Source of the DNA: an uncultured Spirochaetia bacterium
GTDB taxonomy: Bacteria; Spirochaetota; Spirochaetia; JABEVK01
NCBI GenBank assembly: GCA_937960645.1
Contig: CALGPJ010000006.1
Span: 146,868 to 210,867 of the forward strand
Length of the DNA stretch: 64,000 nucleotides
Reading direction: 5' to 3'
Both the position numbers and the translations under genes were made by a program. Positions 3,153-52,757 of this stretch are shown here, in pieces. Numbering within the stretch: the stretch's first letter is position 1; every line of letters starts with the position of its first letter. The notes below the pieces were generated by a model. That model did not search any database. It had not been told where the DNA came from and worked only from the letters and a program-made list of their open reading frames with translations.

Positions 3153-5191
3153 TTGAACACTCGTTGATTGAGTGGGGCAAAGAAGCCCGATTCATTTCTC
3201 CCGCTCTTTCGAAAAACATTGACCTCGACGCTGACCGGTATGTAACGCAAGCCGTTTTCCGGCGGTGTAATCGTGTTGTATTGAAGCACATAGTTCGGGG
3301 TCGGGCGGCTCCTCACCTCTCGTAAAAACTGGTCGATTAAAACATTGCTGACTTCAACAACCTTACCGTCGGTGTCTTCTGCAAGGTACCGCAAATCTTC
3401 GGCCAGTGGCCCCTGCCCTAACTTAATCACGTAAAAAGCTATCATGTTGTTCTTGTAAAACTGGGCCAATTCGATAAGGTCGTACTGTTTGAAGGTGTCG
3501 GAACGGATGTTTCCTGTAGTGATCAAGATCACGGCACGTTTCCCGATACCGGATAGCAAGGCATTGCCCCCCAGACGTAAAGCGATGTCCAAACGTCCGC
3601 GGTCTGTTTGCCTCAACGGATTGAGGGCGAGTTGAGCGGCCTGACCGGGGTTTGTCCAACGGTTTTCCACCTGAACAGGTGTCTCGTTGGCTTCGAGGAG
3701 CCAGATACCGCCATCGTTTTGAAGGTTCGCCACGAGTGATCGGAGGAATTCAGCTCCCTGAGCGGCATTTTGACCCAGGAACATGAACGGAAGACGATCG
3801 AGGACGACGGCGATGTCGATTTTCTGTTGAGCCCAGCCGGCTGTATCGACCCTGAATTCTCTGATGGGAAGATCGCTTTCCTTGATGAAAAAGTTCTTGG
3901 TCTCGAGCCCGACGACCGGCCTCCCTGCTCGATCCTCAACGCACACCTCGAGAAAGATTTTGGGATATTGCTGGATGCTGATGCGTTGAACTCGTACCGC
4001 AAGAGCCGAATACAAACTTCCTCCGGGAGCATAGAGCCTGAAGGTGTTGTCGAGGATATCGGAAACGACAACGTGACCGTTTTGGTCCTTGATTGCGTAA
4101 TTTAAGCGAGCGCCCTGTTCCCACCCCTGATCCAGGGGCTCCAACCGCTTGGACTCGAAATCGTAGAGAAGTACCCTTCGTCCCGCCGCCACCCAAACCA
4201 GTCCCGTGGAATCGGTCCAGATCCCTTCAGCTTCGCGCAGGCGCGAATCATCGAGACGATCCAGCCTGTTGCCGTTGAGATCGTAGATGAACAGGGAGCC
4301 TAATTCTTTGTCGGCCACCAGCAAACGTTCCCTGTCCTTACCCGCCAGGGTCACGCCGCTGGGACGGCGAAGTTCCCCGACGCCGATGTGAAACAAAAAT
4401 TCAGCCTGCCTACCCGAGCGAAATTTGCTGACCCGCCGGTTCCCCCACTCGGAGACATAAAGACCACCATATTTGTCGATGGTGAGAAATTGAGGTCCCA
4501 GTAATTGCCCCGGACCCCGCCCCCGTTCTCCGATCAGCCCCATCCTGATGCCGAGGTCATTGACTACGGCAATGCGGTCGGCCCGAAACTCGGTGATGTA
4601 GTAATAGTCCTGATATTTTTCGATATCCATGGGCCCGAGAAATCCTTCAACGCTCCCCGGAAACCTACGGATGATGTCACCATTCAGGCTTATCTGTAAG
4701 ATGTCCTGGGAAGAAAATACCGCCGCCAGAAACCCACCATTGGGAAGGGGACGGAGCCCCGATGGACCATTGAATCGGATTCGGTTGGGAACATCCCCCG
4801 GAAAATCGCTGAGCGGCAACATTCTGTCGCGGGGTAGAACCAGGGACCCCACTCCCCGACGAAAACGAATGGTTTCTACCCATGCTTGAAGTGCGGTGTT
4901 CTGGGGATTGATCCGTAATACATTTTCCCACTCGTTCAGTCCGGAATTGACAAATCCACTGAAAAATAGCGTGTTGCCAAGCCAGTACCTCGTGAGCAGC
5001 TGGTCGGGCCGAAAATTGAGCGACCTCTCGAAAGCGATGATCGCCCGATTGTAAAAACCATTGTGGAAAGCGACCACCCCGGTTCGAAACTCTTCTTCGG
5101 CACTGACACGATTGAAATCCAGGGGTTGGGCTTCAAGATGCATGGTCATCAGAAGAATTTCAGAAATAAATGCCCAATGACTTCTCTTCAT
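3149..5191 (-). CDS. TPR + NHL-repeat beta-propeller + vWA-like domain protein
   Basis: N-terminal hydrophobic segment and TPR-like helices; repeated NHL-type motifs (YVSEWGNRRVSKF, LLVADKELGSLFIYDLNGN, VWVAAGRRVLLYDF); C-terminus resembles a vWA fold (AVILITTGNIRSD…). Confidence 0.45.
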   Translation of the reverse strand: MKRSHWAFISEILLMTMHLEAQPLDFNRVSAEEEFRTGVVAFHNGFYNRAIIAFERSLNFRPDQLLTRYWLGNTLFFSGFVNSGLNEWENVLRINPQNTALQAWVETIRFRRGVGSLVLPRDRMLPLSDFPGDVPNRIRFNGPSGLRPLPNGGFLAAVFSSQDILQISLNGDIIRRFPGSVEGFLGPMDIEKYQDYYYITEFRADRIAVVNDLGIRMGLIGERGRGPGQLLGPQFLTIDKYGGLYVSEWGNRRVSKFRSGRQAEFLFHIGVGELRRPSGVTLAGKDRERLLVADKELGSLFIYDLNGNRLDRLDDSRLREAEGIWTDSTGLVWVAAGRRVLLYDFESKRLEPLDQGWEQGARLNYAIKDQNGHVVVSDILDNTFRLYAPGGSLYSALAVRVQRISIQQYPKIFLEVCVEDRAGRPVVGLETKNFFIKESDLPIREFRVDTAGWAQQKIDIAVVLDRLPFMFLGQNAAQGAEFLRSLVANLQNDGGIWLLEANETPVQVENRWTNPGQAAQLALNPLRQTDRGRLDIALRLGGNALLSGIGKRAVILITTGNIRSDTFKQYDLIELAQFYKNNMIAFYVIKLGQGPLAEDLRYLAEDTDGKVVEVSNVLIDQFLREVRSRPTPNYVLQYNTITPPENGLRYIPVSVEVNVFRKSGRNESGFFAPLNQRVFN

Positions 5192-7440: not shown

Positions 7441-9084
7441 ATGCTTTTAGCCAACATTGAAAACATCGAAAATCGTCAAAAATTTCGGTTGTTGCTCGCT
7501 TCTGTGTTGACGTCTCTTGCCTCCTTTCTTTCCCAGGCAAACGCCTTCTTTCCTTTTGGAAACCCCTTACTCGGCCTGATCAGTCTCATCCCGTTGCTCT
7601 GGGCCCTTCGACACAGCCCCAACAATCGTTGGGCGAGCCTCATTCTTGGACTCAGTTTGGCCCTATCCAGCCCCTTGCAATACTTTTGGTTGGCGAGCTT
7701 CCAGGATTATTCTACATGGACTATCGGTAGTGTGACCTTGGGTTTTTGGCTCTATGGATGGACCTTCGGTCCCGCATTGCGGTTAGCTCTGCGACAGGAA
7801 CCGGGCCCTGCGGTCTTTTTAGGGGCCATGGTTTGGGCCCTCTACGAGTTTCTGCGCTCGAATGGTTTTTTGGGCTTTCCCTGGGGGAATCTGCCCTATC
7901 CATTTTATGATTGGCAGGCCCTGATTCAGGCAACTGATTGGGGCGGAACGACCTGGATCAGCTTTTTGATCGCCAGTTGGATGATCCTCGCGATGATCTG
8001 GTCCACGGAACCTGAGAATCGTTCGAAGCTGACGCACACCGCCCTGTCTTTTTCCCTGATTGTTCTGGTCCACTTTACTTATGCTTCCTGGACCACCGAG
8101 GTGGAATACGATCAAAAGGGGAGATTAAAGGTCCTCCTCATTCAACAAAACGCGGACCCCTGGGTCCGAGGACAGGAGGCCCTGGGACTTGAGACAAGCG
8201 TTCGCTTGAGTGTGGAAGGGCTACAACGTCATCCGGACACCGACCTCGTCGTTTGGAGCGAAAACAGCCTCAGACGACCACTGCAAATCAGAAAATTTTA
8301 TGAAGAAAATCCCAAAGACCGGCCCCTCTTCGACGTGATTCGAGGAAGCAGACAACACTGGCTTTTCGGCAACCCTTATATTGCCGACCAAAACGCTACC
8401 CGCATCATGAACGCCGCCATCTTGATGGGCCCTAACACGAATATACTCGAGGTCTACGGCAAGAACCATCTCGTTCCTATTGCGGAATTTATTCCGTTTT
8501 TCGAATGGCCACCGATTAGGGATTTTTTCCGAAACACCGTAGGACTTCAAGCGACCTGGGTTCCCAATGATCGGATTTCCCCCCTCACCCTCCGAAGCTC
8601 TACCGGACAGGAAATTCGCCTGGGTGTCCAAATCTGTTTTGAGGATGCTTTTCCGTACATCAGCCGTTCCCTGAGCGCTCAAGGTGCCAAGCTCTTCATC
8701 GTACTTTCAAACGATTCTTGGTCCAAAACGGATAGCGCCCAAATCCAGCATTTTCTTGTGGCGTTGTTTCGTGCCCTGGAAACTCGCACACCGATGATTC
8801 GCAGCACGAACAGCGGTTTCACCGGAGCCGTCGACCCCAGGGGAAAAATTGTGGCGGGGCCCCTGCCCTTTTTCGAGCCGGGCTGGCTCTATCATGATTT
8901 GAAGTTTAGCCTCGAACGACCTTACACACCCTTAAGCCAACTGCTCGGGGATTGGGTCGGTTGGCTGTTCTGGTGGTTGACCGTATTTTTTCTGGCCATG
9001 AAGGGCGGGGCTTTTAGATCTGGGTTGTATTCATACTTCGCAAAAAGGCTTCGTTGGTCTTCGTCTTCCTCATCCGGTCGATGA
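7441..9084 (+). CDS. lnt: Apolipoprotein N-acyltransferase (paralogue 1)
   Basis: About 8 N-terminal TM helices plus a C-terminal CN-hydrolase domain ([22 protein letters not shown]). Confidence 0.75.
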
Positions 9085-11776: not shown

Positions 11777-12490
11777 TCAGGATGTTTGGTTCCAACTCTG
11801 GAAATGCTTCTGGAACTTTTCTTCGAGCTCATCCATATCCGATTCATCGTTTGTATCGGGCTGACGCCCTTTCAACTGTTCCACTTCTTCCTCGAGACTG
11901 TTGAGCGCCGAAAGGACTTTTTCTGACTCTTCAATCACATGTTTTTTCAAATTTTCAACAGCGTCCGGAGAGCTTATATCGAGGTTTTTTGCCTCCTGCA
12001 GCAACTTTTCCATGGGATCCTTGAGGTGTTGCGCAAAAAACGTGTAACTCTTGACCATCCCTTCAATGACGTTGAGGCGTCTTTCCCGATTGGCCACCTT
12101 TTTGGAAAGTTCCCTGTTGCGAAGAACCGCCCGGATTCTCGCCAGCACCTCAGAGAAATTGAAGGGCTTGGTGATGTAATCCTCGATACCTAATTCAAAA
12201 CCCTCGATTTTGTCTTTTACAGCATCCATGGCGCTGAACATGATGATGGGAATGTCGGCAAACTGTTCATAGGCCTTGCTCTTCTTGAGGAGGCGTGTAA
12301 ACTCCCACCCCGTCATCTTGGGCATGATGTTATCCAGGATGATGAGGTCAGGCTTTTCCTCCTGAACGAGGTCGAGCGCCTCCTCCCCATCCTCGGCCAT
12401 TTCCACTTGAAATCCCAGGCGCGAGAGCATCACGTCAAAAAAATCGAGATTGATCGGCTCGTCGTCAACGATCAAAATTTTTCGTTTCAT
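11777..12490 (-). CDS. Response-regulator receiver domain protein with a coiled-coil C-terminus and no DNA-binding domain
   Basis: CheY-like residues DD (LIVDDEP), phospho-acceptor D in LIILDNIMP, and K in ITKPF; the start overlaps the lnt2 stop (ATGA). Confidence 0.7.
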   Translation of the reverse strand: MKRKILIVDDEPINLDFFDVMLSRLGFQVEMAEDGEEALDLVQEEKPDLIILDNIMPKMTGWEFTRLLKKSKAYEQFADIPIIMFSAMDAVKDKIEGFELGIEDYITKPFNFSEVLARIRAVLRNRELSKKVANRERRLNVIEGMVKSYTFFAQHLKDPMEKLLQEAKNLDISSPDAVENLKKHVIEESEKVLSALNSLEEEVEQLKGRQPDTNDESDMDELEEKFQKHFQSWNQTS

Positions 12491-14088
12491 GCAGGGCTAT
12501 CCTTCTCATTTATAGTGAACCAGCAACTTCCTTTTGTCAATCTTAGAACGACAAGTATCGACACACCTCCCAGGGATATGACAAGACAGAGTACGGCGAA
12601 CCAATCCCCATGTTGTGTATAGAATGTTAGTGATTTATCTATTGGTATTGGAACATCGGCAATCAAATACCCCTCCATGAGAGGCGGCAATTCGGCGATT
12701 ACCCCGCCGTTGGGATCGAAGGCGGCTGTCCAGCCCCCATTGGTCGCTCGAACCAGGCTCCGGCGATTTTCGATGGCCCGAAACACGGCCATCGAGTAAT
12801 GCTGCCTCATGTTCGCCAGGCTACGTGCCCAGGAGTCGTTCGTGAGGTTGATGAGAGCCACCGCACCCCGGGAAACGAACTCGCGGCTGATATAACCAAA
12901 AGTGTCCTCGAAGCACACGGGCGTACCCACGCGCACTCCCTCGATGTCTAAATTGGTCCATTCCGATCCGGGCTTCCAAAAATGGACATCGTTTGCCAAC
13001 AAAAATTTTTCGAACCAGGGGAAAACATCACCGTAGGGAAAATGCTCCGTAAAAGGAACGAGGTGAACTTTTTTATAAATGCCACGCAATTCGCCCCGAT
13101 GAAAAAGAAGGACGGCATTCGAATCCTCCCTGACGGGGCCATCGGGTCCGGGAACCCGTTCCCCGTGGCCATTGCCCAACACCAGGGGAACGGGAAAACG
13201 AGAGCTAAAATCCAAAAATTCGCTGACGAGCTCCCAGGTCAAGGGATCTGGCCGATAACGCCGATGGTACTCGATGGAGGGGACAAAGGCCGTCTCGCTC
13301 CAAATAACAGCCTGAGGTTTTTCGTTCAAGGCCGCATTGCTCAGCCGTTTCAGGCGCTCGAATCCCTCTCGGTACATCGGCAGACCACCACGCCAGGGAT
13401 CGACGTCGTGTTGAATCAGGGCAACACGCCACCGGGTATTTTCGGTGAAATCTCTTTGAGAAATTATGCCCCATCCGATGTTGACAGCGGCCAGGCTCCC
13501 CAACACCAGTCCCTGCACCAGGGTACGATGCGCCTGGGAATCCAGAAACAAGCGATTCAGCCAAAAAGCGGGAACGACGGTCAAAAAGGAGACGATCCAC
13601 ACCCCAGCCCATTCGGCGGATTGGATCCAGGGCAAAAATTCATACTGGGTATAGCCGAGGATTCCATAGCTGTACCCCAGGTAGCCGTAATGACGAAGGT
13701 ACTCATAGGCCACCCAAACGAAGGCGGCCAGCCAAACCGACCATCCCGATTTCCACCGTAGCACCAGGGAAAGGATGGGAAAGAGGATCATATGGTAGAG
13801 CATGAAAAAAAGAGGAACGATGATCCAGGCCAGAGGGTCAAACACGGCTAGCCAGTGATTGAACAGGGCATAAGACAACCAGCCGAAATAGGCCCCATAA
13901 AAAAGATTCAAGCGTAAGGAAGAACGACTCAAGACCCAGGAAACGGGAAGGAGGATAAAATATGCCAGACCGCCAGCACCCCTGGTAAAAACGGGATTGG
14001 GATGGGCCAGGGTGAAGAGCAAGGCCGCCAGGGTCAGAAAAAGGAGATCGATCCAGAATCGCTTGAAGGTTGTCAATGAAAATTTCAA
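12487..14088 (-). CDS. lnt: Apolipoprotein N-acyltransferase (paralogue 2)
   Basis: Polytopic N-terminus plus CN-hydrolase motifs (AVIWSETAF, VCFEDTFGYISREF, NDSWARS). Confidence 0.7.
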   Translation of the reverse strand: MKFSLTTFKRFWIDLLFLTLAALLFTLAHPNPVFTRGAGGLAYFILLPVSWVLSRSSLRLNLFYGAYFGWLSYALFNHWLAVFDPLAWIIVPLFFMLYHMILFPILSLVLRWKSGWSVWLAAFVWVAYEYLRHYGYLGYSYGILGYTQYEFLPWIQSAEWAGVWIVSFLTVVPAFWLNRLFLDSQAHRTLVQGLVLGSLAAVNIGWGIISQRDFTENTRWRVALIQHDVDPWRGGLPMYREGFERLKRLSNAALNEKPQAVIWSETAFVPSIEYHRRYRPDPLTWELVSEFLDFSSRFPVPLVLGNGHGERVPGPDGPVREDSNAVLLFHRGELRGIYKKVHLVPFTEHFPYGDVFPWFEKFLLANDVHFWKPGSEWTNLDIEGVRVGTPVCFEDTFGYISREFVSRGAVALINLTNDSWARSLANMRQHYSMAVFRAIENRRSLVRATNGGWTAAFDPNGGVIAELPPLMEGYLIADVPIPIDKSLTFYTQHGDWFAVLCLVISLGGVSILVVLRLTKGSCWFTINEKDSPA

Positions 14089-14089
14089 G

Positions 14090-14398
14090 TCAGCTCAGGA
14101 CGGACCAGGCCTGAGCGCGAAGCTCCTTGCCCGGCCGAAAAACCACGACTCCATGGTTGGAAACCTTGACCGGCTCACCGGTTCTGGGGTTACGTGCCCT
14201 GACACGCCCCTTGCGCGTTTTGACAGCAAATGTTCCAAATCCACGCAGCTCCACCACCCTGCCCTCGACCAAGGCCGTCTTGATTTCCTTGAAGAATTCC
14301 CCATAAAGCGAAAAGGCGGTTTCGCTGTCCACACCAGCGACTTCCTGGATTTTACGCAGAAGATCGGCCTTGGTCAGTTTGTTTTTTTTCTCGGGCAC
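14090..14398 (-). CDS. HU/IHF-family DNA-binding protein
   Basis: GFGTFAVKTRKGRVRARNPRTGEPVKV matches the beta-arm motif of the HU/IHF family. Confidence 0.8.
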   Translation of the reverse strand: MPEKKNKLTKADLLRKIQEVAGVDSETAFSLYGEFFKEIKTALVEGRVVELRGFGTFAVKTRKGRVRARNPRTGEPVKVSNHGVVVFRPGKELRAQAWSVLS

Positions 14399-14406
14399 TT
14401 TTACCC

Positions 14407-14679
14407 CTATTTTGTTGTATGGGTTTTCTTGAGCAGATTCGACAACCGGCTCTTTTTTCGGGCGGCGTTGTTGCGGTGCAATATGCCCTTGGCCGTTGCG
14501 GTATCCAACAATTTTTGAACCTGCACGAATTTTTCCTGGGCGGTCACCGTTTCGCCCGCCCCAACGGCCTCCCGGAAGGACCTGATGGCCGTCTTGATCC
14601 GACTCTTGGCCATTCTATTTCGTAAACGTGCCTTGAGATTTGTTTTGATCCGCTTTTTAGCGGATTTGATGTTTGCCAC
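14407..14679 (-). CDS. rpsT: 30S ribosomal protein S20
   Basis: MANIKSAKKRIKT… full-length match to the S20 family. Confidence 0.9.
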   Translation of the reverse strand: MANIKSAKKRIKTNLKARLRNRMAKSRIKTAIRSFREAVGAGETVTAQEKFVQVQKLLDTATAKGILHRNNAARKKSRLSNLLKKTHTTK

Positions 14680-14815
14680 GTCGACTCCTTAAGTTTAGGA
14701 TAGATCGCAATTTATATGTTTTGATCGGTGATGTCAAGACGAGTACATCGAGTTCCTTATCACTGGCAATTCGGCTATCCTCGTTCGGGAGCCTAAGAGA
14801 TGAAATCTTGACTTT

Positions 14816-14958
14816 TAGGACAGGATTTCTCGCTTCGCTCCGTTGAATCGAGTGTTAAGATTTCTCGCTTTGCTCGAAATGACAGGAGCGCTTATTGGGT
14901 TCGAGTGTTAAGATTTCTCGCTTCGCTCGAAATGACAGGGGGCTCGAAATGACAGGGG
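14816..14958. repeat. Degenerate tandem direct repeat of about 53 bp (2 full copies plus 2 partial copies; conserved core gatttctcgcttYgctcgaaatgacagg)
   Basis: Copies at 14849-14889 and 14902-14940, plus partial copies at 14816-14848 and 14941-14958; lies between the rpsT start and the CPBP gene 3' end. Confidence 0.6.
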
Positions 14959-15873
14959 CACTACCCCTAAAAGGATCACCACGGTAAAGAGACTGCCCAG
15001 AACGAAAATGCCTTGCCATTGCCCGAGAGATTCAACGAACTCTGCCAAAGGTGGGGTACTCAGGAGAACCAGGGCCGAGTTGTAGGTGAAATGAAATACC
15101 ATGGACACGGGCAGACTCTGAAAGCGGTCATAGAAAAAGGCAATTAGAAGTCCTACAGGTAGAAGGGCAAACAGCCCCAGAGCGTTCATGTGGATCAGAG
15201 CGAAAAAGACACCGCTGAAGAGGATCGTTTTTTGAGGGCTCCAAACGCGGCGGAGGGTCTGCTGCAGGTAGCCCCGAAACAACATTTCTTCGCAGACAGC
15301 CGGGGTCAGACCGATGGCAAAAAGATACAACACCCATTTTCCGGACTCACCAAAGTCCAGGGCACCGAGAGGGTCAAGTTCTTTCAAAAACTCGAGCTGG
15401 GGAAAAATCCAAAACCAGATTTCTCCCAGGTAAAGGGCCAGGGGCACAACCGACAACGCCGTCAGAGCCGCTACCAGCATCCCCCTGGGTCGGATCTCGA
15501 GGAGTCGGGAATTGATCAACAGGGAACGTTGATGAAGGTAGGTGTATCCCCAGATGCTTCCTCCCAGAAAGATCAACCATTGAAGGAGGGAACTGACCGC
15601 CAAAATCCACGGCCCTTGTTGACGCATGGTCGATCGGAGGCTCTCCAGCCAATCAGAGCCTGCCTGGCCAGGCTGCTCGGAATGAAGCAGGATCTCGATG
15701 GAATAAGGCACCGAGAGCACAACAGCACCGAGAGAGGTGTAGACGCCCAGCAGCACGATCACCCAGGCGATGACGGCAACGACGCGTGGTTTACCCTCGC
15801 GTTCAAAGACCGGAGACGACATCTTCCCCTTCGGAGGTTGGCTTTCCTGTTTCAAGCCTGGCCTTGAGATCAT
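14908..15873 (-). CDS. CPBP-family (CAAX/Abi) intramembrane metalloprotease
   Basis: Motifs EEMLFRGYL and FALIH…; multiple TM helices; the last roughly 15 codons are encoded by the repeat array, so the 3' end is uncertain. Confidence 0.65.
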   Translation of the reverse strand: MISRPGLKQESQPPKGKMSSPVFEREGKPRVVAVIAWVIVLLGVYTSLGAVVLSVPYSIEILLHSEQPGQAGSDWLESLRSTMRQQGPWILAVSSLLQWLIFLGGSIWGYTYLHQRSLLINSRLLEIRPRGMLVAALTALSVVPLALYLGEIWFWIFPQLEFLKELDPLGALDFGESGKWVLYLFAIGLTPAVCEEMLFRGYLQQTLRRVWSPQKTILFSGVFFALIHMNALGLFALLPVGLLIAFFYDRFQSLPVSMVFHFTYNSALVLLSTPPLAEFVESLGQWQGIFVLGSLFTVVILLGVVPLSFRAPCHFERSEKS

Positions 15874-16810
15874 GATAAAATAACATCTCGATGATAGGTG
15901 TGAAGAAGAGACTGGCCAAATAACTCAGGCTACCTAAGACGAGAAGCTGATAAAAAACCTGATGGAAAAACTTCTGGAAAAGCTGCAGGGCCTCGGGACT
16001 TTGAGCATTTCCCAGGGACATCAATTCCTGGGTATAGGGTGCGAAAATAAGGAAGGAGGGCAAAAAAACGATCAAACCCAAAAGGATGCTAAAGACCATG
16101 CCGCTCACGAGCCTCAGCCCCAACAGTCTCCAAAAGTGGGCTTTGACGAGCTGCAAGCTAACCTGAAGAGAATCCCAGGGCTTTTTCCCATCCACAACCG
16201 CCGGCAGGGCGAGGCTGATGAAGTGGCTAATGGCCACAAGTGCGGCTACAAAAATCAGGTAAGCCACAAAGCCCAGGAAAAGAATCAAATTCTGAAGTCC
16301 CAGGGTGAACAGCAGGGCCCCCACGATCATTCCCAAAATCCCCAGGCAGAGACTCAAAGCAAAAAGGGCCAGGGTTAAAATCACACCGCTGAGAATAACA
16401 ACAATCAGGGCCCTAAGAAAAATACTGGGCAATACTGAAATCAGGGTATGGGCGAGGGGCTTGTCTTCTCCCAAACCCAGGTCTTGCATTCGCTTTTGAA
16501 TGGTTAAACTCGAATAAAGAAGACCCAGTTGAGACAACAAAATCGCCAAAACCAACTGTCCGAAGATCCCGAGGAATTCCTTCAAAGCGTCCCAGAGGTA
16601 TTCCAAATCGGCGGATTCGGCTTTTTCCGCCCATCCGACCCAGTCATCGAAGATCACCCGCATCGAATCGACAACCTTCCAGGAAAGGAGGGCGGGTAAA
16701 AGAAAGCCGAGAATGCCCGAGACAATCACCACCGGGGCAAGCCTTTTCGCCCAACCCCACCAATCTTCAGCGTAGTCGGCCAGGCTTCTGGGCCGGGTCA
16801 ATGTGTTCAT
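15803..16810 (-). CDS. Polytopic membrane protein, unknown function
   Basis: At least 7 predicted TM helices; no recognisable catalytic motif. Confidence 0.4.
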   Translation of the reverse strand: MNTLTRPRSLADYAEDWWGWAKRLAPVVIVSGILGFLLPALLSWKVVDSMRVIFDDWVGWAEKAESADLEYLWDALKEFLGIFGQLVLAILLSQLGLLYSSLTIQKRMQDLGLGEDKPLAHTLISVLPSIFLRALIVVILSGVILTLALFALSLCLGILGMIVGALLFTLGLQNLILFLGFVAYLIFVAALVAISHFISLALPAVVDGKKPWDSLQVSLQLVKAHFWRLLGLRLVSGMVFSILLGLIVFLPSFLIFAPYTQELMSLGNAQSPEALQLFQKFFHQVFYQLLVLGSLSYLASLFFTPIIEMLFYHDLKARLETGKPTSEGEDVVSGL

Positions 16811-16831
16811 GATGAACCCCCCAAGCCCAGT

Positions 16832-19288
16832 TTAATGCCTGACCCGAATCAAGACAAGTTCTACCAGTTTTCCGCCTTGTAGCCCCCGGGTGACACCTGA
16901 CGGTTTGGGTCGTTTTGATCGATTTCCCAGCGCAATGGTAAGAGCGATGGACGAGGTGTTTGGCCCCTGGTTTCCCGCCTGATCGGTCTGTCGAGCTATA
17001 ACCGAATAGACACCATCGGTCAGGGTCACCGGTGTGGTGTAAGCGGACCAGCTGAGGCCCCCGTTGATGGTGTACTCGATGGTAGCTCCCGCCTCTCCGC
17101 TGATGCTGAAGGTCTGATAGGAGCCAAAGGTGCCGCTACTAATCCCCGAGACCGTGGGGGCTGCTGGGGCAGTGGTGTCGATGACGATGCTTTTGCTGTT
17201 GAGGCCGCTCGATGCCGGGTTGGGAAGGGTCAGGTCAGCGGCATTGCCGGCCGCGTCGGCAAGGGTTCCTGTCAGGGAAGTCGTTGCCGGATAGTTGAGT
17301 TTGCTGCTGTTATGGCCCGAGGCCACCACGTAGAGAAAGTTCAGGGCGGATGTCCCCGTCCCGCTCATGTAGATCGCCTTGGAACCCCCACCGGCATTGA
17401 GGGCAAGCTCGGGGCTTCCCGTGACAAAGACGGGTTCGGAGAAAACGATCTGGATCAGCACAGACTGGCCCTGGCGGTAATGACCGTCAGAGGTAGAACT
17501 GGAGACGGTGGGGACCGTGGGAGCCGTGGTATCGACCACTAGGTACTTGTTTCCAAGGTAGTTGGGGGTAGGGAGCTGCAACAGCGCGTTGAAGCCCCAG
17601 GCATCCTTGATGGTCCCGCCGTTGAGTTCCAGTGAATTTATGGTGTCGTAGTCCAGACGGATCGAGGTCTGTGAGGCGCCCACGGTGTAGGTGAAGGTCA
17701 GGGCCGAGGTCCCGCTACCCGCGGTGTAGGTGGCATAGGCTGCCGCCCCGCTGTTGAGTTTGATCCGCGGCGTGCCAGTCACCGTGACCGGGCCGGTAAA
17801 GGTGACGACGACGGTGATCTGCTGAGCGGCCTTGTACGAGCCGTCCAGGGTGGTGCTGACCACCGTGCTCACCGAGGGTTGGGTGAGTGCCAACACAACC
17901 TGGATTTCGGTACTCATCGTGCTGAAGTTGCCGGCGGCATCCTGCTGGCGGGCCCGAATCTTGTAGGTCCCGCTGGTGGTGAGGCTGACGGTGGAGGTGT
18001 ACGTGGTCCATGTGGCGCCCCCATCCAGACTGTACTGGGCCGTGGCACCCGTTTCAATGCCAGTGAGGGTGAAGTTTTGGGTGCTATTGTAGTTACCCGG
18101 TGTGATGCCGGAAACCGTGGGGGCAAGCGGCGGCTGTGCGTCGATGACGAGGTTTTTGGCGTGCCCCAGGCTCCCGGCCGTGTTCGGTGCTGCCAGGGTT
18201 AACACGGCGTCGTTGGTGGCGATATCCTGGATACTGCCACCGTTGAGCTCCAGGGCGGATGTCGAATAATAATCGAGGTCGGCGGAAAGATCGTTGGCCT
18301 GCACCGTGTACACGAAGCTCAAAACCGCGGTCGATGTCCCGGACTGATACAGGGCGTGGCGGGTGGTTGGTCCCACGTTTAGCTGGATGCGCGGACTGCC
18401 AGAGACGAGGACAGCCTCTGAAAAGCTGACCTGAACGAGGATCTGATCCCCGGCCCGGTAGTAACCGTCGCTGTTGGTCGAACCCACCGAAACCACAGTG
18501 GGCGCGGCAGTATCCACCTTGATGTCTTTGTTGGCACCCAGGCTCCCCGGCTGTCCGGCCGTTGGGAGGTTGAGCACCGCATCGACGGAAGAGTCGTTTT
18601 GATCCTTGATCGTTCCCCCGTTCAAATCGCTGAGACTGGCAACGGTGTAATCTAGGTCAGCGGTCTGATCGCCGTTCAGTACGGTGTAATGGAAAATCAG
18701 GATGTTGGTTCCCGTTCCCGAGTTGTAAACAGCGTAGCGTCCCGAACCGACGTTGAGGGCGATGCGGGGACTGCCCGTCACCGCGACGGCCTTGTTGAAG
18801 CTCAAACGGATGGGGATTGTCTGCGTTGCCTTGTACCAGCCGTTGGCGGAAAGGGAGGTCACGTCGGTGACGAACACATCGCCGTTGTCGATGACGATGT
18901 GACGCGTGGCATAGTTCGTGTTGCCCGACCCGTCGGTGATGGTGACCAGAAAGTTTTGCGAACCGCTGGAAAGGCTTCCCAGATTAAAGGCCTGGAGGAT
19001 GTCCAGGGACCAGGTCTTACCCGAGATTTGCGCATTCTGGGTAAGGTTGCCCTCGATCCAACGCACCTTGACGATGGGCACCTTGTACGCCTGATTGTCA
19101 TCCCAGGTACCGGCCAATAGCAGGCTGCTGGCGTCCTTGGTTCGAAAGCTCTCGCCGTTGTTGGCAGGCTGGGTGATGGCGATCTCCGGAGGGGTGATGT
19201 CCGGCGCCTCTCCCAGGCCGCCGCTGATAGGGTTTTCACAGGAAACGGTGAACATCATCAAAACCAAAATTCGCGTAAAATGGCGCAT
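16832..19288 (-). CDS. Large surface lipoprotein with tandem Ig-like repeats (818 aa), a paralogue of the upstream gene
   Basis: Lipobox …MMFTVSC; repeated modules of about 100 aa (…TGSPRIxLNxG…YTV…DLDY…LNGGTIKD…) alternating with chitobiase-C-like modules (…YSLDGGATWTTY…). Confidence 0.6.
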   Translation of the reverse strand: MRHFTRILVLMMFTVSCENPISGGLGEAPDITPPEIAITQPANNGESFRTKDASSLLLAGTWDDNQAYKVPIVKVRWIEGNLTQNAQISGKTWSLDILQAFNLGSLSSGSQNFLVTITDGSGNTNYATRHIVIDNGDVFVTDVTSLSANGWYKATQTIPIRLSFNKAVAVTGSPRIALNVGSGRYAVYNSGTGTNILIFHYTVLNGDQTADLDYTVASLSDLNGGTIKDQNDSSVDAVLNLPTAGQPGSLGANKDIKVDTAAPTVVSVGSTNSDGYYRAGDQILVQVSFSEAVLVSGSPRIQLNVGPTTRHALYQSGTSTAVLSFVYTVQANDLSADLDYYSTSALELNGGSIQDIATNDAVLTLAAPNTAGSLGHAKNLVIDAQPPLAPTVSGITPGNYNSTQNFTLTGIETGATAQYSLDGGATWTTYTSTVSLTTSGTYKIRARQQDAAGNFSTMSTEIQVVLALTQPSVSTVVSTTLDGSYKAAQQITVVVTFTGPVTVTGTPRIKLNSGAAAYATYTAGSGTSALTFTYTVGASQTSIRLDYDTINSLELNGGTIKDAWGFNALLQLPTPNYLGNKYLVVDTTAPTVPTVSSSTSDGHYRQGQSVLIQIVFSEPVFVTGSPELALNAGGGSKAIYMSGTGTSALNFLYVVASGHNSSKLNYPATTSLTGTLADAAGNAADLTLPNPASSGLNSKSIVIDTTAPAAPTVSGISSGTFGSYQTFSISGEAGATIEYTINGGLSWSAYTTPVTLTDGVYSVIARQTDQAGNQGPNTSSIALTIALGNRSKRPKPSGVTRGLQGGKLVELVLIRVRH

Positions 19289-19297
19289 CTTCCCCTC

Positions 19298-22200
19298 CTA
19301 CCTTGTATACGTTCCGGATTCAAAGCTTGGGCTGGCATGGTGGCGGTACCCACCAGGTTGAATCTCCAGGGTCTCGAAGAGTTGCCAGCGCCACTGCTGC
19401 GGCCCGTTGGTGGCCCAATCGGCGGGCTTGTCACCAATCAGGGCCTTGTAGCGTGCGGGCACCGTGATGGCCCAGGTTACCCACCGCCAGTTGTTACTGT
19501 CGTTTTTGGCGAGTTTCACGAAGCCGTATTGCGTCTGATCCCAGGTGAGTGGAAAACCGGGTGCCACGGGCGGACCGGCAGGTGCGTCCCCCCCGCGGTA
19601 CCAGAGGGAATTGAAGCCCGTTGGAAAGGCACTGAAGTTGGAGGAAAACACGGTCTTGAAGGCCACCTCCTCGGCCACGGCGGAGTCCGACAGACCGCTT
19701 TTGAAGGCCCGGGCCTTGATCCTGTAGATATACCCACCGTCCAGATCCACCGTCCCAATGGTGATTTCCGTGGAATAAGGTGTTGAAGCTCCGGTGGGTG
19801 TCCCCGGATCAGCCGGAAGCGCGGGATTGTTCACGGTGGTCTTTCCGGAATTGCTGCTGGTGTAACGAATCGTGGCTCCCTCGGTTTCCGAGCTGATCTT
19901 CAGGGTGGTCGTGGTGGGTTGAGAATTTTCGCTCCCGCTCTGCTTTCGGATACGGATCACCGGAGTGGCAACCGGCCCAGTGGTGAAACGGTAAACCGCA
20001 CTGCTGGCGATACCGGCGTAGTTGTAACCCGCAGCATCCTTGAACGCGGTACCGTCGATGAGCACGTACCAGAGGACTCCTGGGGGAATCCCCGCAGACG
20101 GGGTGATGGTGATGGTCGCACTCCCCGCCCCCGTCACCTGAGCCGATTGAACATCGACCTCGATCTTGTTGTAACCCAAGGCATCAAAAATCGTCAAAAG
20201 GGAGGCGTTGTCGGGATCCAGGTTGTAGTTAAGCACCCAAAGGCCCTGGGTGTTGGGTACCCCGGCGACGGCCCCGTTGGTAGTGTAGGAGAACGAGTTG
20301 TCGAAGGTGGTCAAATTGGCACCACTCAACTGTCCCCGATATTCATCCCTCTGCACCTGGCTCATCAACACCGGGAATCTCTGGTGGACGCGGTGGAAGG
20401 TGATCTTGCCTGTGCCCTTGAACACGGGCTCACTGAAGGTCAGGTTCACCGAACTGCTGGTGACGTTCAACTGATTGTGGGTGGGATTGGTGGATATCAA
20501 GGTTGGGGCCACCGCGTCGATCACCAGGTTTTTGTTGTAGCCGAGGCTCTGTGGAGACCCGGGGTTGGCCAGGGTGAGGTTGGCGTTGTTGGAGAAGGCG
20601 TCCCGAATCGTTCCCCCGTTCAGATCGAGGGCGCCCGTGTTGGCATAGTCCAGATCGGCGCTGGCATCGTTGACCTGGACCACGTAGTGAAAGGTTAAGC
20701 TCGAGGTCCCGCTTCCACTCTGATAGTTAGCCGACCGAGCCGGACTGGTATTGAGGTTGAGCTTCGGTGCTCCGGTCACGGTTACGTTTTCGGAGAATTG
20801 CACGAGGATGACGATGGTGGAGCCGTGCGTGTGAATACCGTTGACCGTCGAACTGGTGACGTTGGTCACGACCGGTGCTGTCAGATCCAGGTTGAGGTTG
20901 ACGGCGGAACTTGCCGATCCCAGGTTACCGGCCTGATCGGTTTGCCGTGCCCGAACCGCGTACGCGCCATCCGTGTTCAGAGTTACGGGCCCTGTGTACG
21001 GCTGCCACGTGGTTCCCCCATTGACGGTGTATTCCAAGGAGGCTCCGAGCTCGCCGGATACAGTGAAGGTTTGCACGGTGTTGAAATTTCCGCCGCTGAT
21101 GCCACTCACCGTCGGGGCCGATGGGGGCGTGGTGTCGACCACCAGGGTAACGACGCCGGGAAGGCTGCTGGGACCGCTCGTCGGCTGGTTCAGGTTGGCG
21201 GTGTTGGTGGCGAGGTCGGTGATGGTCCCCGTTAAAGCGGTGGCCGAGTGGACATTCAGGGGATTGGCGTTGTCCCCGGCCTGCACGAGATAGGTAAAGG
21301 TGAGGACATTGGTTCCGGAGCCGAAAGCGTAGGTAGCGTTACGGACCGAGGCGCTGGTGTTCATCCGCAGCACCGGCGAGCCGGAGACGACCACAGGCTC
21401 GGAGAAAGTGACGGTAATACCGATGTTCTTGTTTTCGTTGTAGTGCCCGGGGGTGGTGCTGGAACTGACCGAGATAACCGTTGGAGCCACGGTGTCGATC
21501 ACGATGTTTTTGTTGTATCCCAGGCTGCCCGTCGAGGCCACCGCGGGAAGGGTCAGGGTGGCATTTAACCCGAGACTGTCCTTGATGGAGCCTCCGCTAA
21601 GCGATAGCGCCGTGGTGCTGGTGTAATCCAGGTCGGCTGTGTTGTGCCCGGATGCTACCGTGTACCGGAAGACCAGGATGTTGCTCCCGCTGCCGGACAG
21701 ATACGAGGCCGAACCGCCCGTATTCAGAGCGAGCGTGGGCGTGCCCGTCACGAAGGCCGACTTGGTGAACTGAACCGTGATATCGACGTTTTGCCCGGCT
21801 TTGTACGATCCGCTTGCGGTGAGGCTGTCCACGTTCGAAACGACAAAAGCCAGTCCATCGATCACGACGGTGACCGAGGCACTGACCGAAGACGTATTGC
21901 CTGCCACATCGGTCTGACGGCTCTGGATGATGTAGGTCCCGTTCGTGATCAGATTGACCATCACCGAGTACGCGTTCCAGGTACTTCCCCCGTCTAAGGT
22001 ATAGAAGGCACTGGCGCCCGGTTCGATACCGGTGAGAGTGAAACTCTGCGGCGTGTTGTAGTTTCCGCTGACCACACCGGTGATGGTTGGGGCCACAGGG
22101 GGAACCGCATCGACGACGATGGCCTTGTTGTGCCCCAGGCTGTTGGGTGCTCCGGGATTGGCCAGGGTCAAAACGGCGTCGTTTCCCGCCGGGTCTCGGA

Positions 22201-23299
22201 TGGTCCCGCCGTTGAGGTCCAGGGCCGTGGTGGAGGCATAGTCCAGATCGGGGCTGGCGTCACCGGCGGCCACCGTGTAGAGGAAGTTCAACGTGCTCGA
22301 GCCGCTGCCGTGGGTGTAGGTGGCGAATTTTCCGGCGATGTTGAGTTCCAGACGCGGGACACCCGTGACGAGGACGGGCTCGTTGAATTGGACCTGGATG
22401 GAGAGGGCCGAGCCGGTGCTGTACGAACCGTTGGCCGTCGAAGAATGAACGTTGTTTACCGAGGGTGGAACCGTGTCCACGTAAAAATTCTTGTTTGCCC
22501 CCAGGGAACCGCCCAGTCCTGGGCTGCCCAGACTGAGCACGGCGTCGGTGCCAGTGTTATCTTTGATGGTCCCCCCGTTGAGCTCCAGAGCTGTGGTGGA
22601 ATCGTAATCCAGCTCGGCGCTTTCGGGAGCGTTTTCTCCGGTCTGGATCAGGTAGTGGAAGACCAAAACATTGGTCCCGGAACCGGACACATATTGGGCA
22701 TAGACCGATGGCCCACTGTTGAGTTTGAGCCGGGGTGTGCCGGTCACCGTGGCCTGTTTGGTGAAGATCACGCGCAGGGGAAGGGTCTGTCCGGCCCGGT
22801 ACCAGCCGTTGTCCGCCAGGCTGGTCACCTCGACGACGCTCAAGCTGTTGTTGTCGGCAAGGAGAAATCGGCTTGCATGGTTCTTGTTGCCGGCCGCGTC
22901 GGTCACGATGACCCGAAAGTTCTGCGCTCCTGCGGCCGAAGCGAAGGCCGCCCCGAAGGCGGTGTTGAGGTTGACGGACCAGGAGGGCCCGGTGAAGTTT
23001 CCCAGGCTGAATTCCTGATTCTGTTCCATCCACCGAACGACGATGCTCGCTCCCTTGTTCGCCTGATTATCCGACCAGGTACCGCTCAAAAGGACGGGTT
23101 GAAGGGGATTGTTGGTCTTGAACGCCAGCCCGTCCTCGTTCGGCAATTGGATCGTGATCGCAGGGGGCAGGTAGTCCACCCCCTCCCCCAACCCTGGTGA
23201 GATCAGGTTCTCATCACAGGAAAAGAGCAGAAACACGAGAAAAACACGAATTAATAACGTTTCCAAAAAGGAAAATTGAAATTTTTTCAAATTGCCCAT
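19298..23299 (-). CDS. Giant surface lipoprotein with tandem Ig-like repeats (1333 aa)
   Basis: Lipobox …LLFSC; at least 5 copies of the same repeat module as in 16832..19288, two CHB_HEX_C-like modules, a Big_5-like segment and a distinct C-terminal domain of about 350 aa; 9-bp gap to the downstream paralogue. Confidence 0.6.
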   Translation of the reverse strand: MGNLKKFQFSFLETLLIRVFLVFLLFSCDENLISPGLGEGVDYLPPAITIQLPNEDGLAFKTNNPLQPVLLSGTWSDNQANKGASIVVRWMEQNQEFSLGNFTGPSWSVNLNTAFGAAFASAAGAQNFRVIVTDAAGNKNHASRFLLADNNSLSVVEVTSLADNGWYRAGQTLPLRVIFTKQATVTGTPRLKLNSGPSVYAQYVSGSGTNVLVFHYLIQTGENAPESAELDYDSTTALELNGGTIKDNTGTDAVLSLGSPGLGGSLGANKNFYVDTVPPSVNNVHSSTANGSYSTGSALSIQVQFNEPVLVTGVPRLELNIAGKFATYTHGSGSSTLNFLYTVAAGDASPDLDYASTTALDLNGGTIRDPAGNDAVLTLANPGAPNSLGHNKAIVVDAVPPVAPTITGVVSGNYNTPQSFTLTGIEPGASAFYTLDGGSTWNAYSVMVNLITNGTYIIQSRQTDVAGNTSSVSASVTVVIDGLAFVVSNVDSLTASGSYKAGQNVDITVQFTKSAFVTGTPTLALNTGGSASYLSGSGSNILVFRYTVASGHNTADLDYTSTTALSLSGGSIKDSLGLNATLTLPAVASTGSLGYNKNIVIDTVAPTVISVSSSTTPGHYNENKNIGITVTFSEPVVVSGSPVLRMNTSASVRNATYAFGSGTNVLTFTYLVQAGDNANPLNVHSATALTGTITDLATNTANLNQPTSGPSSLPGVVTLVVDTTPPSAPTVSGISGGNFNTVQTFTVSGELGASLEYTVNGGTTWQPYTGPVTLNTDGAYAVRARQTDQAGNLGSASSAVNLNLDLTAPVVTNVTSSTVNGIHTHGSTIVILVQFSENVTVTGAPKLNLNTSPARSANYQSGSGTSSLTFHYVVQVNDASADLDYANTGALDLNGGTIRDAFSNNANLTLANPGSPQSLGYNKNLVIDAVAPTLISTNPTHNQLNVTSSSVNLTFSEPVFKGTGKITFHRVHQRFPVLMSQVQRDEYRGQLSGANLTTFDNSFSYTTNGAVAGVPNTQGLWVLNYNLDPDNASLLTIFDALGYNKIEVDVQSAQVTGAGSATITITPSAGIPPGVLWYVLIDGTAFKDAAGYNYAGIASSAVYRFTTGPVATPVIRIRKQSGSENSQPTTTTLKISSETEGATIRYTSSNSGKTTVNNPALPADPGTPTGASTPYSTEITIGTVDLDGGYIYRIKARAFKSGLSDSAVAEEVAFKTVFSSNFSAFPTGFNSLWYRGGDAPAGPPVAPGFPLTWDQTQYGFVKLAKNDSNNWRWVTWAITVPARYKALIGDKPADWATNGPQQWRWQLFETLEIQPGGYRHHASPSFESGTYTR

Positions 23300-23454
23300 G
23301 GTTCATCTTACACCAATGGAAACGTTTCTGTCAACATCAAATTGAAAAAAATTTTGTCATGTTTTAGGCACTTTTCTGCGGCATTCGAATTCATACGAAA
23401 GACATAGCCAGAGACGCCGACGGCAAAGTCCCTCAAAACAGTCCCCACCTGAGC

Positions 23455-35516: not shown

Positions 35517-35963
35517 ATGGATGATTCTCTATTTTCGATCGAGGGGCTTTCCCTCGAGGCCGCGCAGCAACACATTTTGACGATTCTCACCGAACTCAAA
35601 CTCCGGGAGAAGGAACTCAAGAACCTTCTCGAACAGGAAAATACCTGGTCACAAAGGCTCGAATTGGCGCAGAAGCACAACAGGGATGATCTGATCCAGG
35701 CAGCACAAACCGAATTGACCCAAATTGCTGAAAAAAAGCACCGCGTGCGGCAGGAGCTTCAGGAGTTTCAACTTGGAATGGAAAGGCTCAAAAGCCAGAT
35801 GAACCGCCTGCCCGGGGAACTTTCCCTTCAGTCATCCGACCAGCTGATCGCAGAACTGTCCCTGCTCGTGGGCGAGGAACCCAAACCAGATGACTCGGCA
35901 TTCGATGAACTGGAAGCCCAGCAGGCACTCGAGAAGATGAAATCCGAAAACCAAGGTCAGTGA
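35517..35963 (+). CDS. Coiled-coil protein (weak PspA/IM30-like C-terminal resemblance)
   Basis: Heptad-rich, acidic C-terminus …DDSAFDELEAQQALEKMK. Confidence 0.3.
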   Translation: MDDSLFSIEGLSLEAAQQHILTILTELKLREKELKNLLEQENTWSQRLELAQKHNRDDLIQAAQTELTQIAEKKHRVRQELQEFQLGMERLKSQMNRLPGELSLQSSDQLIAELSLLVGEEPKPDDSAFDELEAQQALEKMKSENQGQ

Positions 35964-52752: not shown

Positions 52753-52757
52753 GTGGT

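Follow-up and report, generated by a model that had tools for sequence, protein, structure and literature searches.

Paired giant lipoproteins of Ig-like and OmpL47-type modules in an uncultured Spirochaetia bacterium, one of them apparently shortened by deletion

Introduction

Two large repeat-rich genes lie side by side in the genome of an uncultured Spirochaetia bacterium (GenBank assembly GCA_937960645.1, contig CALGPJ010000006.1), and they raise the question of what kind of proteins they encode, how one came to be much shorter than the other, and whether their repeats serve to vary the cell surface. A sequence-only reading had described a tandem pair of paralogous lipoproteins with the architecture of a surface adhesin or S-layer-like protein, and had proposed antigenic diversification by recombination between repeats. 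Here, the upstream gene (B) and the downstream gene (A) were analyzed in a window of 64,000 nt (positions 146,868 to 210,867 of the contig).

Results

Organization of the locus

Genes B and A were both on the minus strand, separated by 9 nt as described before (Table 1). The sigma-70-like promoter ended 5 nt ahead of the B start codon (ATG), and neither the B/A boundary nor the stretch up to the following gene held a convincing terminator. B and A are probably co-transcribed paralogous lipoprotein genes. The GC content of the B/A region was 0.585-0.616, compared with 0.51-0.53 in the 14-17 kb flank and 0.58-0.64 in the 24-31 kb flank, so the higher local GC reported earlier holds against the former flank and not against the latter. 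The neighbouring genes were housekeeping genes encoding UvrB, HtrA, ComM, a DUF7847 protein, a CPBP protease, HU and Lnt. Two Lnt paralogues were encoded in the window, indicating that the lipoprotein modification machinery is present.

Table 1. Features of the B/A locus (window positions; aa, residues of the respective protein)
Feature	Position	Strand	Description
Sigma-70-like promoter of B	23305..23334	minus	TTGACA-18 nt-TAAGAT, 10/12 matches
Gene B	19298..23299	minus	1333 aa
B signal peptide and lipobox	23216..23299	minus	aa 1-28, ...LLFSC, Cys28
B N-terminal Ig-like domain	22838..23215	minus	aa 29-154
B R1 and R2	22154..22837	minus	aa 155-260 and 281-382, Ig-like modules
B O1	21842..22153	minus	aa 383-486, OmpL47-type / CHB_HEX_C_1 sandwich
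B R3 and R4	21176..21841	minus	aa 487-587 and 608-708
B O2	20870..21178	minus	aa 708-810, OmpL47-type / CHB_HEX_C / Big_13
B R5	20561..20869	minus	aa 811-913; absent from A
B C1	19970..20524	minus	aa 926-1110, Big_5-like sandwich with helical insert
B C2	19661..19969	minus	aa 1111-1213, FN3-like, related to CHB_HEX_C_1 and Fn3_assoc
B C3	19301..19660	minus	aa 1214-1333, Trp-rich terminal domain, family signature
B/A spacer	19289..19297	minus	9 nt, GAGGGGAAG, includes Shine-Dalgarno sequence
Gene A	16832..19288	minus	818 aa
A R copies (n = 4)			aa 140-244, 265-368, 473-575, 592-691
Relics of the putative former C-terminus of A	16861..16941	minus	+1 frame: PLRWEIDQ(N)DPNRQVSPGGYKAENW, then stop
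A tail	16835..16927	minus	aa 788-818, LGNRSKRPKPSGVTRGLQGGKLVELVLIRVRH, ~31 aa in wrong frame

Lipobox and N-terminal domain

The lipobox test demanded a positive n-region, a hydrophobic h-region and then [LVI][ASTVI][GAS]C (PROSITE PS00013-type). The lipobox previously noted at the start of both ORFs was recovered: A fitted the pattern exactly (Cys17, with R2/R6 in the n-region), and B, with KK, a hydrophobic core and L-F-S-C, fell one residue (R18) short of the strict {DERK}(6) window. This cysteine was the only one in B and in A, was invariant in 7/7 close family members and was the sole Cys in most of the seven. Both proteins are thus predicted to be lipid-anchored substrates of signal peptidase II. 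The related N-terminal motif was also present, as AGTWDDNQAYKVPIVKVRW in A and SGTWSDNQANKGASIVVRW in B; the B domain holds a GLGEGVD motif after the cysteine as well as SGTWSDNQA...VRW, and gave weak matches to Ca_tandemer and DUF4625. The RTX-type adhesin model NF033510 (NCBIfam) reached 32.8 and 29 bits, below its cut-off of 50, and aligned with the N-terminal domain only.

Modular architecture

B and A share one layout, in which the N domain is followed by (R-R-O) x2, where R is an Ig-like module of ~103 aa and O a sandwich of the OmpL47 / CHB_HEX_C type. In B these are followed by R5, C1 (Big_5-like), C2 (FN3-like) and C3. The paralogy proposed earlier is confirmed by the alignment of A 8-787 with B 21-806 (48.7% identity, 717 bits), while a second register (A 90-621 with B 438-960, 43.6% identity) revealed an R-R-O super-repeat. 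When one R copy of B was used as phmmer seed, the other eight copies were recovered (E 5e-15 to 8e-33), which makes the earlier counts of five or more and at least three exactly five in B and four in A. The periodicity is confined to the protein; in the DNA, TRF found no tandem array.

For the O modules, the model barrel_OmpL47 (NCBIfam NF047446, cut-off 40) scored 59.2 bits in A and 57.9 in B, with two units per protein, and PF03174, PF13290 and PF19077 exceeded their cut-offs in the Pfam scan. PF03174 and PF13290 (gathering cut-offs 23.6 and 22 bits) scored 32.7 and 26.2 bits in A, and 23.9 (borderline) and 38.6 bits in B, in agreement with the CHB_HEX_C-like units noticed before. For the R modules, no Big_2 (PF02368) match was found in B or A at E ≤ 1, and of Big_5 and Big_12 (PF19078) only the latter gave a match in B and A themselves, at 14.6 bits against a cut-off of 27. 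Among 47 scanned segments (14 from the family of B and A, and 33 R-R pairs of other proteins), Big_5 matched 10 (best E 9e-11) and Big_12 matched 9 at E ≤ 0.01; the R module thus seems remotely related to Big_5/Big_12, not a clean member of either. An AF2 model of R-R-O gave three beta-sandwiches at pLDDT 94.7, and its closest PDB structures were arrays of Ig/FN3 domains, among them the stem of the GhpA grappling hook. These results support two paralogous lipoproteins in which Ig-like modules alternate with CHB_HEX_C/OmpL47-type modules.

C-terminal cassette and protein family

The sequence-only reading had assigned the longer protein a unique C-terminal domain of about 350 aa. What follows R5 is instead ~420 aa forming three domains, and this C1-C2-C3 cassette is family-wide and was apparently once present in A too. 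Big_5 (PF13205) had no match in B itself at E ≤ 1, and C1 of B is called Big_5-like because it is homologous to C1 of orthologues whose scores exceed the cut-off (34.5 and 36.2 bits vs 23.6). C2, like O, exceeded the cut-offs of the chitobiase / beta-hexosaminidase accessory-domain models (PF03174, PF13290). C3 carries the motif W.RGGD...PGFPL.W...W.W.TW...GP and, having no detectable relative in Pfam (including its CBMs) or among PDB sequences, appears by these searches to be a new terminal domain. Its structure prediction from 6 sequences gave a pLDDT of about 30, so that a binding role for C3 is a guess.

A C3 profile search of 1.84 billion proteins returned 184 cluster representatives at E ≤ 1e-3, and C3 marks lipoproteins of 1.2-2.7 kaa in about 184 clusters. 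Among the 150 C3 matches listed, nearly all long proteins (at least 1000 aa) carried the R-R-O-R-C1-C2-C3 cassette, with C3 at the very C-terminus; all complete members of the family end in C3. The lipobox test was passed by 85/105 of these long proteins (those starting with M), and GLGxx[VLIM][DN] directly followed the cysteine in 65 of the 85. Same-strand tandem pairs were found at about 14 of the 18 compared loci, and at most of the loci with enough flank. Their spacers, which contain a Shine-Dalgarno sequence, measured 9 nt in L001 and L004, as here, and 9-15 nt among distant pairs. Upstream proteins matched other upstream proteins best and downstream proteins matched downstream ones; within the close clade, B and A were more alike (49%) than either was to any distant member. 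Tandem pairing could stem from repeated duplication instead of from a heteromer. Four traits were taken to define the family: a lipobox followed by GLGxxxD, the R-R-O-R-C1-C2-C3 cassette, a very C-terminus formed by C3, and a tandem partner on the same strand. B shows all four, and A shows the first and the last, plus relics of C3.

Truncation of gene A

The orthologues of A are ~1300 aa long; over their first ~785 aa, three of them showed 77% (P0009, 1297 aa), 75% (P0008, 1312 aa) and 70% (P0005, 1296 aa) identity with A. Its DNA was colinear with the L001 locus apart from a missing segment. By this comparison A appears to be a shortened copy of a ~1300-aa gene from which R5 to C3 were deleted. 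Two deletions were recognized, one of about 1.33 kb that shifts the frame and one of about 132 nt, and the larger would have come first. At junction 1 (about 16934-16941), the end of O2 is fused to a position within C3; at junction 2 (about 16910-16916), a C3 position is fused to the C-terminus. Both show microhomologies of a few bases. The 26-nt relic between them (16941-16916) was identical to the orthologue (nt 3682-3707) at 23/26 positions, and the former stop TAG is still readable at 16863-16861. Relative to the L001 orthologues, dN/dS was about 0.08 for A and about 0.055 for B, with dS saturated, suggesting that the retained part of A was under purifying selection through most of its history. 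A may now encode a lipoprotein reduced to its stalk, or it may be a gene in decay.

Could the short A be an artefact of assembly, the real genome holding a full-length ~1300-aa gene? The window does come from an assembled contig (253 kb), and genes rich in repeats are prone to misassembly. However, the junctions do not lie between similar repeats, two separate deletions enclose a relic that still resembles the orthologue, and the readable stop looks like decay and not like graph collapse; we regard an artefact as very unlikely. The same deletions, together with adjacent paralogous genes holding nine copies of one module, could also suggest a contingency locus in which recombination within and between both genes alters repeat number and surface epitopes. 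But the deletions in A join no two repeats. Among the R copies, identity is 38-60% at the protein level and 60-76% at the DNA level. No exact direct repeat in the DNA is longer than 18 nt, compared with 11-14 nt in shuffles, and all five orthologues of 50-79% identity have five R copies at conserved positions. The R repeats are thus old, and with the copy number fixed at five in orthologues, antigenic variation by recombination between repeats is not supported; we consider the diversification proposed earlier extremely improbable. Phase- or antigen-variable repeat proteins would have near-identical DNA repeats open to slippage or recombination and a repeat number that differs among relatives, and the pair shows neither.

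Discussion

LigA and LigB of Leptospira are surface adhesins with an N-terminal lipobox and a long run of Ig-like modules of ~90-100 aa; LigB has a non-repeat C-terminal domain, which is missing from its shorter paralogue LigA. A relates to B in much the same way, as short to long paralogue. However, Lig repeats are Big_2, whereas B and A have Big_5/Big_12-like R modules alternating with OmpL47-type units, their C-terminal domains are unrelated to that of LigB, and the short paralogue A apparently arose by deletion of a once full-length gene. Leptospira OmpL47 (LIC13050) is abundant and surface-exposed (PMC2698987, PMC2935396) and binds host matrix proteins weakly in ELISA (PMC2935396). The O modules pass its domain model, but the whole-protein equivalog NF047441 reached only 27.2 and 28.4 bits against a cut-off of 250, and OmpL47 is about 47 kDa and has neither R modules nor the C1-C3 cassette.

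The best structural matches to the R-R-O model were GhpA/SprB of Bacteroidota (PDB 9fls, 9flu, 9flp and others), outer-membrane-attached stalks of dozens of successive Ig-like repeats whose specialised distal end catches the target (bioRxiv 10.1101/2024.01.29.577165). At 9-15% identity there is no sequence relationship, and a PDB sequence search gave no match. GhpA is a T9SS-exported, C-terminally anchored and disulfide-rich heptamer of 5,898 aa (bioRxiv 10.1101/2024.01.29.577165), whereas B and A have an N-terminal lipid anchor and a single Cys, and their C-terminus would be distal. Widespread giant 'beta strand repeat-containing' proteins (for example P0003, P0006, P0014 and P0048) share the R module with B and A, in up to 16 copies each with a ~120-aa period and a common consensus (VTGTP.L.L..G...A.Y.SGSGT..L.F.YTV..G..S.DLDY....L.LNGGTI.D..GN.A.L.LP.). 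They differ in lacking the lipobox and GLG start and the C3 end, and terminate otherwise (dockerin, T9SS sorting domain, FG-GAP/VCBS, NosD, RTX).

We think it probable, with some reserve, that B and A are co-expressed as long surface fibrils, anchored by lipid and bearing a binding cassette at the distal end, and that A has lost R5 to C3. After export by a Sec signal peptide and lipidation at the invariant lipobox cysteine, each protein would extend as a chain of some 10-11 beta-sandwiches; if an Ig module spans about 4 nm, B would reach roughly 40 nm. The stalk would consist of R and O modules, and C1-C2-C3, farthest from the membrane, would be the likely working end, probably ligand-binding. 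Upstream-type and downstream-type genes seem to be paired in nearly all cases with a 9-15-nt spacer, which suggests that their expression is coupled and that the two chains may assemble together. Beyond the architecture, lipobox, R and O fold, family, pairing and deletions reported above, we infer that the proteins are surface-exposed, rod-like and adhesive and that they form heteromers. A lipoprotein such as B or A can also face the periplasm. In E. coli, Asp after the lipobox cysteine retains lipoproteins in the inner membrane, and spirochaetes do not necessarily follow this rule; D or E stood at this position in 48 of the 85 pattern-passing long family proteins.

An adhesin-like surface role is plausible, as the sequence-only reading had it, but its S-layer alternative found no counterpart, since Pfam and NCBIfam scans detected no SLH or other S-layer anchoring or lattice domain in B or A. 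This also weighs against a structural coat, in which the two chains would be lattice subunits of a regular surface layer, part of a sheath or a periplasmic scaffold. Conserved tandem pairs with tight spacers do imply stoichiometric co-expression, and in GhpA, which is structurally closest, parallel Ig-repeat strands form a rigid stem of several chains (bioRxiv 10.1101/2024.01.29.577165); yet this organism apparently copes with one partner that lacks its C-terminal third, and we judge such a coat unlikely. A part in a chitin- or hexosamine-degrading apparatus, with the modules holding substrate for enzymes, is suggested by CHB_HEX_C and CHB_HEX_C_1 scores above the Pfam cut-offs and by the conserved aromatics of C3, which recall many carbohydrate-binding modules. 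But B and A share with chitobiase / beta-hexosaminidase the accessory sandwich only, a generic one, and have no GH20 or other catalytic domain in Pfam and NCBIfam scans (E ≤ 1). The neighbours include no glycoside hydrolases or transporters and C3 has no relative among the CBMs, so this role seems quite unlikely.

In conclusion, B and A belong to an unnamed family of giant paired lipoproteins, which is probably spirochaetal to judge from indirect hints. The truncation of A, the C3 domain with its family and the prevalence of tandem pairs are reported here as new.

Results

The giant lipoprotein gene B and its downstream neighbour A (coordinates in the table) belong to an unnamed and undescribed family of proteins with a new terminal domain, C3, and a conserved paired-gene layout. 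Both encode an ordinary kind of protein, the multi-Ig surface lipoprotein.

Features of the window considered in this analysis
Feature	Position	Strand	Description
B	19298-23299	minus	1333 aa
B-A spacer			9 nt, GAGGGGAAG, contains a Shine-Dalgarno sequence
A	16832-19288	minus	818 aa
Relic between the deletions in A	16941-16916		26 nt, 23/26 against orthologue nt 3682-3707, encodes PLRWEIDQ
Old A C-terminus	TAG at 16863-16861		...DPNRQVSPGGYKAENW + stop TAG, still readable in the +1 frame
Sigma-70-like promoter	23305-23334	minus	TTGACA-18 nt-TAAGAT, 10/12 consensus matches
DUF7847-like gene	15803-16810	minus	polytopic membrane protein, 21 nt past the A stop
CPBP gene	14908-15873	minus	Rce1-like intramembrane protease
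Lnt paralogue	7441-9084	plus	apolipoprotein N-acyltransferase
Lnt paralogue	12487-14088	minus	apolipoprotein N-acyltransferase
Unassigned ORF	3149-5191	minus	680 aa
WD40/beta-propeller repeat protein	35957-38413	minus	818 aa
PlzA-like protein	48374-49177	plus	like the Borrelia c-di-GMP receptor
MetRS	50298-52466	plus
TyrRS	54871-56097	minus
GlyRS	56094-57422	minus
GluRS	57419-58921	minus

Module layout and fold

In protein alignment, A 8-787 was 48.7% identical to B 21-806, and a second register, shifted by about 340 aa, gave 43.6% identity. Using one B copy of the Ig-like R module (about 103 aa) as seed, phmmer detected 8 further copies (E 5e-15 to 8e-33), with five copies in B and four in A. 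The O modules, of about 100 aa, are positioned between R pairs and were above threshold for the Pfam models CHB_HEX_C, CHB_HEX_C_1 and Big_13 and for barrel_OmpL47, an NCBIfam domain model (59.2 and 57.9 bits, cut-off 40) for a domain type whose name is taken from Leptospira OmpL47. An N-terminal domain followed by two R-R-O units is common to A and B; B adds R5 and then about 420 aa. The AF2 model of B R1-R2-O1 consisted of three all-beta sandwiches (pLDDT 94.7, pTM 0.85, 47-row alignment). Since sequence matches and modelled folds agree, the description of Ig-like repeats alternating with CHB_HEX_C-like modules in the sequence-only reading was correct.

R lies near Big_5 and Big_12, which were matched by 10/47 and 9/47 segments respectively (E<=0.01); the R copies of B and A themselves were below the cut-offs of both. 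No relative of R was found among PDB sequences, and profiles of R-R-O and of the C-terminal region gave nothing meaningful there. Beyond the pair, R modules with a period of about 120 aa (consensus VTGTP.L.L..G...Y.SGSGT..L.F.YTV..G..S.DLDY....L.LNGGTI.D..GN.A.L.LP) are present in as many as 16 copies per protein among the giant proteins P0003-P0120, and R-bearing giant proteins were found in many bacteria and in contigs labelled Asgard archaea ('NosD domain-containing').

The C-terminal 419 aa of B (915-1333) were modelled by AF2 from an alignment of only 6 sequences, which resolved two of three parts: C1 (926-1110), a Big_5-like sandwich with helical inserts, and C2 (1111-1213), which is FN3-like. 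The third part, C3 (1214-1333), reached a pLDDT of about 30 with these 6 sequences. It is rich in Trp, bears the conserved motif W.RGGD...PGFPL.W...W.W.TW...GP, and matched neither Pfam nor, by profile search, PDB sequences.

Lipoprotein and expression signals

The lipobox of A fits the PROSITE-type pattern exactly (Cys17). In B, KK and a hydrophobic core come before L-F-S-C (Cys28), and a single charged residue departs from the strict pattern; the lipobox cysteine is aligned in 7/7 close family members and is the sole cysteine in most. The earlier claim of a lipobox in both proteins is thereby upheld, and both are probably lipidated, judging from sequence. Two Lnt paralogues lie less than 7 kb apart near B and A; the syntenic contig L001 shows one within the stretch compared.

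The sigma-70-like promoter ends 5 nt upstream of the B ATG, so the B mRNA may lack a leader, or translation may really begin further downstream. Alignment to L001 starts at the promoter edge (window 23335). No convincing terminator was found between B and A or before the next genes.

Truncation of A

The closest relatives of A, P0009 (1297 aa, 77%), P0008 (1312 aa, 75%) and P0005 (1296 aa, 70%), match only its first ~785 residues. In L001, UvrB is followed by a B-type gene (1336 aa), a 9-nt gap, an A-type gene (1297 aa) and then DUF7847, CPBP, S20, HU and Lnt; the window is colinear with L001 apart from about 1.5 kb of the A-type gene that it lacks. One deletion, of about 1.33 kb and frame-changing, starts where O2 ends and stops within C3 (orthologue nt ~2349-3681); after the 26-nt relic, a second removed about 132 nt in frame. 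As the old C-terminus is still readable in the +1 frame, the last 31 residues of A are out-of-frame sequence. An assembly error is possible as the origin of the short A, but a pair of deletions with relics left behind has the look of genuine decay, and A appears to be a truncated gene. Microhomology at the deletion junctions is limited to a few bases, and neither deletion joined repeats. Against the L001 orthologues dS was saturated, and dN/dS came to about 0.08 for the retained part of A and 0.055 for B; against locus L004, saturation left no value. The low dN/dS of A suggests that the loss is recent relative to the divergence, or that the stump is still useful.

Age of the repeats

The R copies are 38-60% identical in protein and 60-76% in DNA. 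TRF detected no DNA-level tandem array, no exact direct repeat within the 6.5 kb exceeded 18 nt (longest in shuffles, 11-14 nt), and all 5 orthologues (50-79% identity) keep five R copies at the same positions. Diverged copies, no array and a fixed copy number argue against diversification by inter-repeat recombination, and the antigenic variation proposed earlier was therefore rejected.

Neighbouring genes

The neighbours of the pair are housekeeping genes. As listed, the DUF7847-like and CPBP ORFs share about 70 nt; L001 keeps both, and L004 has neither at this position. A conserved accessory partner gene was rejected, because these two downstream genes are shared with L001 and not with L004 or distant loci. 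Elsewhere in the window, the PlzA-like protein matched NF047404 (E 9e-20, 71 bits, cut-off 450). This match is a weak pointer to a spirochaete source, and the Leptospira name of the O-type domain and the Borreliaceae-named MAG described below hint the same way. The WD40 protein equals A in length by coincidence and is unrelated. The 680-aa ORF had no Pfam match at E<=1e-5 and a weak NHL / PEP-CTERM ScyF-like NCBIfam match (52 bits, cut-off 350). Genes for four aminoacyl-tRNA synthetases are clustered in about 9 kb (50298-58921).

The C3-ended family and its tandem pairs

An exhaustive C3 profile search of 1.84 billion representatives returned 184 proteins at E<=1e-3. Among the 150 matches listed, 107 were 1000 aa or longer (maximum 2710 aa), and in nearly all of these C3 stood at the extreme C-terminus, usually after R-R-O-R-C1-C2. 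Of the long members listed that start with M, 85/105 passed the lipobox test, and 65 of these 85 carried GLGxx[VLIM][DN] after the lipobox. Pfam and NCBIfam matches in five sampled members were generic Ig-like only. Word-indexed searches with C-terminal and C3 profiles yielded only Big_5 or short unnamed fragments and missed known full-length members; an empty word-indexed search does not mean that relatives are absent, and exhaustive HMM searching is preferred. Among genome contigs, a first scan with B alone found no relatives and the C-terminal alignment only one true family locus; the sole species-representative genome in which a member occurs is a MAG that bears a Borreliaceae name.

Pairing was surveyed at 18 loci (the window, L001, L002 and 15 metagenome loci), and same-strand tandem pairs were present at about 14, with spacers of 9-15 nt that contain a Shine-Dalgarno sequence. 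Locus L009 (32-21472) holds four family genes arranged as two tandem pairs that converge, one strand encoding 1941+1893 aa and the opposite strand 1937+1338 aa (cut). Across loci, upstream proteins best match upstream proteins and downstream proteins downstream ones. Both types end in C3, and A is the only member without C1-C3 among the loci compared. Within the close clade, B and A (49% identical) are nearer to each other than to any distant member, which points to recurrent duplication or a co-evolved pair. At L025, a third giant gene (11905-18579, plus strand, 2224 aa) follows the family pair; its product begins with the same lipobox and GLG (…LAACDVGLGMRVN), matches none of the R, C1 and C3 profiles, and may represent another branch of the family.

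Discussion

In the best-supported reading, A and B would be a co-expressed, lipid-anchored pair in which a stalk of Ig modules keeps the conserved C-terminal cassette at a distance from the membrane, with one partner, A, truncated in this genome. Adhesion is suggested by this architecture and by the analogues Lig, OmpL47 and GhpA. Lig proteins are analogues of B and A for adhesion. OmpL47 binds host matrix proteins only weakly (PMC2935396), and GhpA is a further analogue (bioRxiv 10.1101/2024.01.29.577165). The interpretation first offered, a surface adhesin or S-layer-like protein open to antigenic variation, thus survives only in part: its observations hold and the adhesin is plausible, and the S-layer was rejected along with antigenic variation, as Pfam and NCBIfam scans found no SLH or S-layer domain in A or B.

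A structural coat, a periplasmic location and a glycan-handling role are each possible for the pair. A glycosidase or other enzyme was rejected for want of a catalytic domain in A or B (Pfam, NCBIfam, E<=1), an RTX adhesin on NF033510 scores of 32.8 and 29 bits (cut-off 50), and an OmpL47 orthologue on NF047441 scores of 27.2 and 28.4 bits (cut-off 250). A more specific form of the lipid-anchored pair is speculative and, taken as a whole, rather unlikely: an obligate two-chain surface spike or fibril, spirochaete-type-specific, in which upstream and downstream chains would pair through C1-C2-C3, and C3 would be a new ligand-binding fold at the tip, for a ligand such as a glycan, in attachment to particles, hosts or partner cells.

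Since Ig-like-repeat surface proteins are common, the finding as first stated was ordinary. What is added is a coherent unnamed family of about 184 clusters at 50% identity, marked by lipobox and GLG at one end and at the other by a domain without a Pfam or PDB relative, and with genes that nearly always come in closely linked pairs. The R module occurs in thousands of giant proteins, yet has no dedicated Pfam model or solved structure. A itself offers a small but clear case of a gene decaying through successive microhomology deletions. If the pair does form a two-chain surface fibril, C3 would represent a new binding fold, the truncated A would be a natural loss-of-function of one chain, and the family would be a tractable candidate for the attachment structures of poorly studied free-living and gut spirochaetes.
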